This document shows, in pieces, positions 2,391 through 2,565 of a DNA stretch of 64,000 nucleotides. Every line of letters starts with the position of its first letter. Position 1 is the stretch's first letter. Location of the stretch: the IMG/VR virus record IMGVR_UViG_3300020204_000053; one strand, given 5' to 3'. Below the pieces are notes generated by a model. It worked only from the letters and a program-made list of their open reading frames with translations, made no database searches and was not told the DNA's origin. A program made the translations under genes and the position numbers. The stretch comes from a virus.

Positions 2391-2515
2391 CCAGAAATTT
2401 TTTTTACCCAAATCCGTTATTTCTGCTATTATCCCCCCCAAACTGACTATATGACAGGTAGGAAGGGGGGATACGGCGGGCATACGGGGGGAGGGCCCCC
2501 ATGCCAGGGAGGGGG

Positions 2516-2538
2516 TTATCCACATATAGTTATCCACA
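2516..2538 (+). promoter_or_regulatory. Two tandem perfect DnaA-box 9-mers TTATCCACA (2516..2524 and 2530..2538) inside a G/C-tract-rich intergenic element (2400..2560)
   Basis: Exact matches to the bacterial DnaA box consensus, embedded between GGGGG and CCCCC runs, a strong compositional outlier in an AT-rich genome. Confidence 0.35.
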
Positions 2539-2565
2539 TATTATACCCCCCTCCCCGTTAAGTTA

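Follow-up and report, generated by a model that had tools for sequence, protein, structure and literature searches.

What does a phage gain from a short spacer that carries two perfect DnaA boxes among runs of G and C? The question is raised by IMG/VR virus record IMGVR_UViG_3300020204_000053, of which a stretch of 64,000 nucleotides was analyzed (hereafter the window). The spacer spans 218 bp (2348–2565) between two minus-strand genes, and a preliminary description of its sequence at 2400–2560 had offered as roles a replication origin or DnaA-titration site, a G-quadruplex or i-motif element, and the border of an inserted module. The spacer is a real conserved cis element. Our preferred reading, held with about even confidence, is that this element may work mainly at the DNA level, through binding of the host DnaA protein.

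Two exact DnaA boxes (TTATCCACA), in direct orientation and 5 bp apart as described, are located on the plus strand at 2516–2524 and 2530–2538. Both boxes form one 14-bp tandem duplication and therefore count as one event, not two. The count over the window, which had been suggested as a check, gave a divided answer: three exact boxes were found against 0.98 expected, an excess without significance (4 of 100 shuffles gave as many), and the matches with at most one mismatch showed no enrichment (26 found, 25.5 expected). By contrast, the local clustering was strong. All three exact boxes of the window fall within 2000–4000, where 0.02 would be expected, together with eight matches with at most one mismatch (0.76 expected), and none of 1000 dinucleotide shuffles reached three exact or eight near matches in this interval. 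The stronger argument that the boxes are not a product of chance is their conservation in relatives.

Related contigs were gathered through homologues of the 175-amino-acid protein encoded upstream of the spacer (about 48% identical) and through a metagenome scan with the invariant core of the spacer, and the resulting alignment comprised 13 distinct spacer versions with a mean column identity of 83%. The spacer was present in all related contigs and was far better conserved than the surrounding genes; in relatives with about 48% identity in the flanking protein, it showed 74–94% identity. Identity to the related contig L102 was 78–94% over 2376–2525, compared with 42–74% in the upstream gene and about 40%, the random level, downstream. 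Two further contigs from IMG/VR, L006 and L084, surfaced in a scan for TTATCCACA-N5-TTATCCACA and proved to be distant homologues; their flanking protein is 30% identical, and they contain a rearranged spacer built from the same pieces. The element is single-copy: a profile search (nhmmer) that covered the 64-kb window and about 90 kb of related loci found nothing but the element itself. An open reading frame (ORF) of 65 amino acids is called within the spacer in nine of the ten near-identical contigs shown (58 amino acids in one contig). This ORF is shortened to about 34 codons in the B-type relatives, no gene is called there in L102–L108, and the substitutions in its frame, read by hand in the variable stretch, all change the amino acid; the spacer ORFs were rejected as coding on these grounds. 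The spacer is thus both conserved and non-coding.

Within the conserved spacer, the box at 2530–2538 is exact in all 12 relatives that cover the site and the box at 2516–2524 in 11 of the 12; the latter is replaced in L125, where an inverted pair of boxes is present instead. The alignment of the 13 homologous spacers showed the 9-mers to be exact, with variation in the 5-bp gap (CTATA or CTAAA) and the flanks. The element carries two to four consensus or near-consensus boxes. The window and L101 have a tandem pair, to which the B and C types add an inverted box; L125 has one box and one inverted box, L006 has two exact boxes and two with one mismatch, and L084 has two exact boxes and one more. 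Every lineage therefore retains at least two exact boxes despite the changes in number and orientation, and inverted repeats of G and C runs enclose the boxes in most lineages but not in all. An exact consensus that is kept despite positional turnover is what selection for DnaA binding predicts, and selection for an RNA loop does not predict it. The comparison thus supports the idea that the 9-mers behave as selected binding sites.

The scan for TTATCCACA-N5-TTATCCACA in IMG/VR found 86 viral loci in total (L005–L090). They are mostly multi-box clusters unrelated to the element, and the majority fall into a few families in which some 130 bp contain four to six boxes. The 5-bp tandem spacing recurs in many of the multi-box clusters of viral contigs. 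DnaA-box clusters hence appear to be common in such contigs, and part of the 86 loci may be contamination by host origins.

A sister cluster of boxes occupies 3849–3927, 1.4 kb from the main boxes, and the two clusters bracket three conserved small genes. It consists of an exact TTATCCACA on the minus strand (3919–3927), TTATTCACA on the same strand 32 bp away (3887–3895) and an inverted TTTTCCACA on the plus strand (3849–3857), which overlaps the start codon of an 89-amino-acid gene. All three box positions are invariant in the seven relatives that cover the site, and L006 has two tandem exact boxes and one inverted box there.

The sister cluster adjoins a conserved non-coding region of about 500 nt. 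The divergent spacer that contains this region (3859–4650, 790 bp) retains long blocks without any variation in relatives that share only about 48% identity at the protein level. A second promoter-like site, TTGTCA-N18-GATAAT with a G6 run, lies on the plus strand at 3958–3987, is conserved in relatives and faces the large non-coding region; downstream of it we noted a candidate structured non-coding RNA of about 500 nt (3975–4490, plus strand). The consensus fold of the plus strand over 3859–4650 comprised 131 pairs with 95.5% of cells paired. Changes on both sides were observed for 12 pairs, against 6.2 in shuffles (none of 500 reached the observed number) and two or fewer when the partners were slid, and after L006 and L084 were added, 29 of 94 predicted pairs were double-sided. 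The fold of 3975–4490 includes many strand-specific G-U pairs, and the candidate ends in runs of G5 (4456–4460) and G9 (4472–4480). The region had no match in Rfam. Folding and covariation suggest that 3975–4490 is probably a structured RNA.

The main element itself is as rich in G and C runs as first described, with six runs of at least five G or C in 2433–2551 out of 57 in the window, and the two quoted strings are present, GGAAGGGGGGATACGGCGGGCATACGGGGGGAGGGCCCCC starting at 2461 and CCCCCCTCCCCG at 2546. The background had been given as about 30% GC, and the actual value for the window is 35.6%; the GC content is 59.2% in 2433–2557 and 51.6% in 2400–2560. Read on the minus strand from the stop codon of the upstream gene, the element consists of GGGGAGGGGGG, TATAAT, the two boxes, CCCCCTCCC and a hairpin (GGGGG-CCCU-CCCCCC), followed by a variable GTATGCCCGCCGTAT, C6, CTGTCA-N18-GATAAT with G7, and an AT-rich leader with GTATTTAT. 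Pairing arms do surround the boxes, as proposed: 2507–2519 and 2543–2555 form an inverted repeat of 13 nt (I24) that is 92% complementary. In the predicted fold of the minus strand, the G-run arm GGGGAGGGGGG (2546–2556), nearly invariant in relatives, is the 5′ arm of a GC clamp, and the C-run arm CCCCCTCCC (2507–2515), which is also part of the inverted repeat, is the 3′ arm that pairs with it. The hairpin GGGGG-CCCU-CCCCC(C) at 2486–2500 (minus strand) lies in an invariant core. Its five G-C pairs are unchanged in 13 of 13 sequences, and L125 retains the stem with a changed loop (CACA). An inner hairpin between the boxes, predicted for the window, was dropped; it is absent from the consensus fold of the relatives. 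A scan of 2348–2565 on both strands found no intrinsic terminator, the stems being followed by UGGCAU and CGUAUG with no U-tract.

The plus strand of the invariant core (2486–2515) translates as GGGPPCQGGG, in which GGPPCQG presumably resembles motif IV of cytosine-5 methyltransferases. The exact 20-mer also matched unrelated metagenome genes (L109, L112, L114, L123 and L124). A relic of such an enzyme was considered and dropped, as the similarity ends at the motif, and we judge the 20-mer to be a coincidence of G runs, C runs and TGCCAG.

Between the stems and the downstream genes lies a predicted sigma-70-like promoter, CTGTCA-N18-GATAAT, at 2428–2457 on the minus strand, with a G7 run abutting the –10 hexamer. 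This promoter faces the downstream genes. It is kept in the closer relatives, as TATAAT in the B and C types and as GTGACA-N17-TATAAT in L125. It is weaker, as judged by eye, in L006 and L084, where the –10 hexamer is GACAAT and the –35 hexamer matches at four and three of six positions, respectively, with 19-nt spacing. The pattern GGGG[GT]ATAAT occurs three times in the 64 kb, twice in the element and once at 3978–3987 (plus strand), all within 2.4–4.0 kb, and the second and third copies have (C/T)TGTCA exactly 18 nt upstream. TGTGGATAA precedes the promoter-like site at both 2428–2457 and 3958–3987 in the same relative orientation. The promoter scan also reported TTAATA-N18-TATAAT, in which the TATAAT hexamer lies directly after a G run (2540–2545, minus strand); the hexamer is TATAAC or GATAAC in relatives and the –35 hexamer is not conserved, which makes this promoter doubtful. 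Direct repeats of TGTCA-N3-(T)GTCA at 2444–2456 (minus strand), 2650–2662 and 3951–3963 (both plus strand) are confined to a 1.5-kb module within the 64 kb, and the corresponding module of L102 (4032–5603) has five copies. They could be duplicated –35 boxes or sites for some binding protein. No promoter motif of the Bacteroidota type, for which we take TTTG and TAnnTTTG to be the patterns, was seen by eye.

The leader (2348–2427, minus strand) contains phased A/T tracts and GTATTTAT at 2362–2369, about 15 nt before the ATG; the GC content of 2348–2432 is 23.5%. The motif is a generic gene-leader motif of this phage, as similar leaders precede other genes (e.g. 258–251 and 866–857). On the sense strand, GTATTTAT precedes several start codons by 4–22 nt and often follows TTTTTGGG; its sites are 251–258, 2362–2369, 9312–9319, 33116–33123, 44640–44647 and 63027–63034. 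One possibility is a promoter or leader motif specific to this phage, which the sigma factor of the phage (63050–63850) might recognize.

Taken at the DNA level, these parts suggest the following course of events. Host DnaA would bind the boxes, the GC stem-loops would insulate against or attenuate read-through from the upstream gene, and the promoter would restart transcription for whatever genes follow. With insulation and restart combined, the element would therefore mark the border of a module where genes are exchanged. As to what DnaA binding would be for, we rank two-part replication control before promoter control and promoter control before titration. A part in a two-armed replication control region seems possible, DnaA-dependent control of the adjacent outward-facing promoters is a more tentative proposal, and titration of host DnaA is improbable. 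If DnaA does bind, a lineage of large, uncultured freshwater phages has kept DnaA sites down to 30% identity of the flanking protein, and these phages would be tied to the replication initiator of the host, be it for replication, for the timing of transcription or for draining DnaA. The element is easily testable, being short and sharply bounded with natural variants of two, three and four boxes, and it drew attention to the neighboring conserved RNA-like region in a phage that carries a GOLLD RNA.

Several observations weigh against DnaA binding as the main function, and most of them concern replication. The two conserved box clusters, the TGTCA-N3-TGTCA repeats, the AT-rich tracts and the promoters look origin-like. 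The tests of the replication origin offered in the preliminary description gave it no support. In the bacterial origin unwinding system (BUS), the gap between boxes is no more than 3 bp, and three or more DnaA-trios start within 16 bp of the box (PMC8287927). Here, the gap is 5 bp, and the second box is followed by TATTATA and then the 12-nt CCCCCCTCCCCG, with at most two trio-like triplets when trios are counted with the middle A on the DnaA-bound strand. The cumulative GC skew falls and tracks the gene strand, with no inflection other than a small local dip at 2–4 kb, and most genes to the right of the site lie on the minus strand, where a fork that starts here would meet them head-on; skew and gene orientation are weak tests for phages. 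No replication gene was recognized nearby or among 40 window proteins searched against Pfam and/or PHROGs, most of which had no match at all. The boxes also sit in the most GC-rich DNA of the region, which is the hardest to melt. For the control of promoters, the distance from box to promoter varies by site (58, about 30 and 1–2 bp), a variation that would be surprising if the regulatory geometry were fixed, and the sigma-70 interpretation may be inapplicable if the host uses unusual promoters, only 2 of 53 gene starts being of the Shine-Dalgarno type. Finally, some one-sided changes keep wobble pairing on the sense strand only, a hint that part of the element may function as RNA.

Such a role is the first alternative to be considered, in which the spacer part of the sense (minus-strand) transcript would fold into a structured RNA that acts in processing, stability or attenuation, with helices made of the G and C runs and the box 9-mer as a conserved loop. 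The sense fold of the window sequence has –72 kcal/mol and a z-score of –2.76, compared with –1.33 for the antisense, and the consensus fold comprises 35 pairs with 97.5% of cells paired. A long-range helix (UAUGCCC/GGGUAAA) stays paired on the sense strand of the window, L101, L116 and L128 by means of G-U wobble, while the antisense is mismatched at these positions, and the neighboring region of the module has covarying helices of G and C runs. In the element itself, by contrast, covariation was not significant, with one double-sided change that 170 of 500 shuffles reached, and for four of five lineages the predicted antisense fold equals or surpasses that of the sense strand. Rfam 15 had no match over the element at the gathering score, and the lone overlap at E ≤ 10 was a chance-level eukaryotic snoRNA (20.1 bits against a gathering score of 64). 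Moreover, a loop fails to explain why the 9-mer is the exact DnaA consensus, why its number and orientation vary, and why the box is found again at another site that has no GC stem around it. Inverted boxes could pair with each other in the B, C, L125 and L006 types, but those of the window and L101 have no partner. We consider a structured RNA unlikely.

The next alternative takes up the border of a module, a suggestion that fits the data. Conservation extends no further than the downstream start codon. The next gene differs between relatives, beginning with MKH.LNN in the window and the C type and with MKKIVRLTE in the B type and L125; in L006, an additional gene separates the upstream gene from the element. 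In T4-type phages, the cassettes called PeSLs extend from a stop codon to the next ATG and contain a sigma-70-like promoter and a polyG/polyC stem-loop; each genome has about 50 copies of this repeat family, which are located among orphan genes and border the indels that distinguish related phages (PMC2839356, PMC4122927). The element could likewise be a terminator-promoter recombination cassette and nothing else, serving insulation and gene shuffling, with boxes that have no DnaA role. It shows all of these traits, from the stop-to-ATG extent to the orphan genes and indels, except for the copy number, and its leader motif recurs upstream of other genes. Nevertheless, the profile of the element finds only itself in the window and the related loci, compared with the roughly 50 copies of PeSLs, and GGGG[GT]ATAAT is restricted to its three nearby occurrences. 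The lack of a U-tract after any stem means that there is no canonical intrinsic terminator, and the exact conserved DnaA boxes are left unexplained. A cassette of this kind alone is accordingly rather unlikely in our estimation.

We regard as quite unlikely the proposal that both box clusters, the three small genes and the RNA of about 500 nt together constitute a previously undescribed phage replication origin. Under this proposal, promoters flanked by DnaA boxes would launch the folded RNA that ends in the G runs at 4456–4460 and 4472–4480. The RNA would form an R-loop and prime DNA synthesis in the manner of ColE1 RNA II, and 2400–2560 would be the second, leftward arm.

A G-quadruplex on the plus (template) strand, or an i-motif on the sense strand, that pauses or blocks polymerases is a far weaker candidate. 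With the criterion of four tracts of at least three G and loops of 1–7 nt, the scan did find a canonical motif, G6-N7-G3-N5-G6-N1-G3, at 2465–2495 on the plus strand, from which the flanking genes are transcribed. It is the only canonical plus-strand motif of the 64 kb, with G4Hunter scores of up to 1.96, and the G-richness of this strand is kept in all relatives. The motif itself is not kept, as the middle GGG becomes GG in L101, L116 and L128, and the same changes keep the wobble pairing of the RNA. Each G run also has a complementary C run nearby, so that a duplex or hairpin competes, and the boxes are not explained. The role is thus very improbable. Most improbable of all is a chance feature or a small coding gene, either the ORF of 65–69 amino acids at 2328–2537 (minus strand) or that of 102 amino acids at 2253–2561 (plus strand): both appear in the ORF list and the former is placed by gene callers as noted above, yet its decay in relatives, the non-synonymous changes and a nucleotide conservation above that of the neighboring real genes speak against coding, and the shuffles exclude a chance origin of the box cluster.

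The surroundings of the element contributed few familiar genes. The upstream gene (2566–3093, minus strand, 175 amino acids) has a stop codon that directly adjoins the element, and the downstream gene (2150–2347, minus strand) encodes 65 amino acids; neither belongs to a known family in Pfam or PHROGs. TTATACACA overlaps the start of the upstream gene at 3093–3101. Homologues of the 175-amino-acid protein in related metagenomic phages were 43–50% identical, with two close ones at 80% and 99% and the L006 counterpart at 30%. Pfam and PHROGs gave no significant match of use for ten neighboring proteins, with only weak metallopeptidase-like hints for a 132-amino-acid HExxH protein downstream, and PHROGs gave almost no matches for the large window proteins. 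IMG/VR searches with the 175-amino-acid protein and with a 22-mer of the core had no match. The same search with the 132-amino-acid protein returned four loci, none of which has the element; their single boxes lie in coding DNA. Cultured phages yielded nothing in blastn except a match of 80–90 bp in a pterin dehydratase gene. A conserved 25-mer had no match in species genomes and hence gave no prophage or host lead, and tblastn with the phage sigma factor, run for a host lead, gave scattered matches of 33–38% identity. In the whole window, a Shine-Dalgarno-like 4-mer precedes 2 of 53 gene starts, and leaders are A/T-rich. Because so few starts have this motif, translation in the host probably does without it, which points to a host with Shine-Dalgarno-independent initiation such as a member of the Bacteroidota or a cyanobacterium. 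JGI contigs identical to the window come from samples whose identifiers we take to be those of Lake Tanganyika.

The window encodes a sigma factor, DnaJ, two DNA methyltransferases, giant collagen-like proteins and a GOLLD RNA. The GOLLD RNA is full-length (RF02032, 312.8 bits; 20512–20920, minus strand) and lies about 650 nt from a tRNA-Met(CAT) gene (21578–21650, minus strand). A group of collagen-related features concerns 35765–44620, 48033–50795 and 12312–13007, all on the minus strand. Three giant ORFs (928, 976 and 1048 amino acids) are found in a block of about 50% GC. In the 928-amino-acid ORF, the one of the three that was scanned, collagen triple-helix repeats occur together with an endosialidase-chaperone domain. 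A PLOD-type collagen glycosyltransferase/methyltransferase fusion is encoded as well, as is a 2OG-Fe(II) oxygenase, and the phage may carry a toolkit for collagen modification. Several otherwise unlike proteins, including a pterin-4a-carbinolamine dehydratase, have MNLQE(N/T)I.R(I/V)K at or near the N-terminus (4944–5312 and 5683–6072 in the window, 10152–12059 in L006), and L(I)LPKYPWIK is common to three small proteins (2566–3093, 4651–4938 and 5410–5673). Both sets look like paralogous modules.

How does the element compare with known systems? Some origins of plasmids and phages rely on host DnaA beside sites for their own initiator, an example being P1 oriR with tandem DnaA boxes at its edge. 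The element resembles this type in having a few tandem consensus boxes that border a conserved non-coding region of a mobile genome, with short direct repeats nearby and an AT-rich stretch adjacent. It differs in that no Rep gene was recognized here, the TGTCA repeats are iterons only as candidates, and the boxes are clamped by GC stems and occur in two clusters 1.4 kb apart. Two-part origins of bacterial chromosomes flank dnaA, and they too have two box clusters separated by genes, about 1.4 kb of them in this phage. With the BUS, the element shares tandem consensus boxes in the same orientation followed by a GC-rich cluster, but the cluster has 11–12 nt here compared with about 4 nt, and no dnaA gene is present. 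DnaA also acts as a transcription factor or roadblock, and the datA locus of E. coli titrates DnaA. The boxes of high-affinity type beside promoters, and the presence of several boxes on a high-copy genome, are in line with these functions, whereas the geometry of box and promoter is not fixed and no accessory sites were identified. Finally, the element is like a PeSL in running from stop codon to ATG with a predicted sigma-70-like promoter and a polyG/polyC stem-loop, and in lying among orphan genes where genes are replaced between related phages. It is unlike a PeSL in being a single copy of about 215 nt with several stems, in belonging to a phage that is not T4-like and in carrying DnaA boxes, which PeSLs do not. 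The element therefore belongs with the known DnaA-box clusters and PeSL-like cassettes rather than in a new category.

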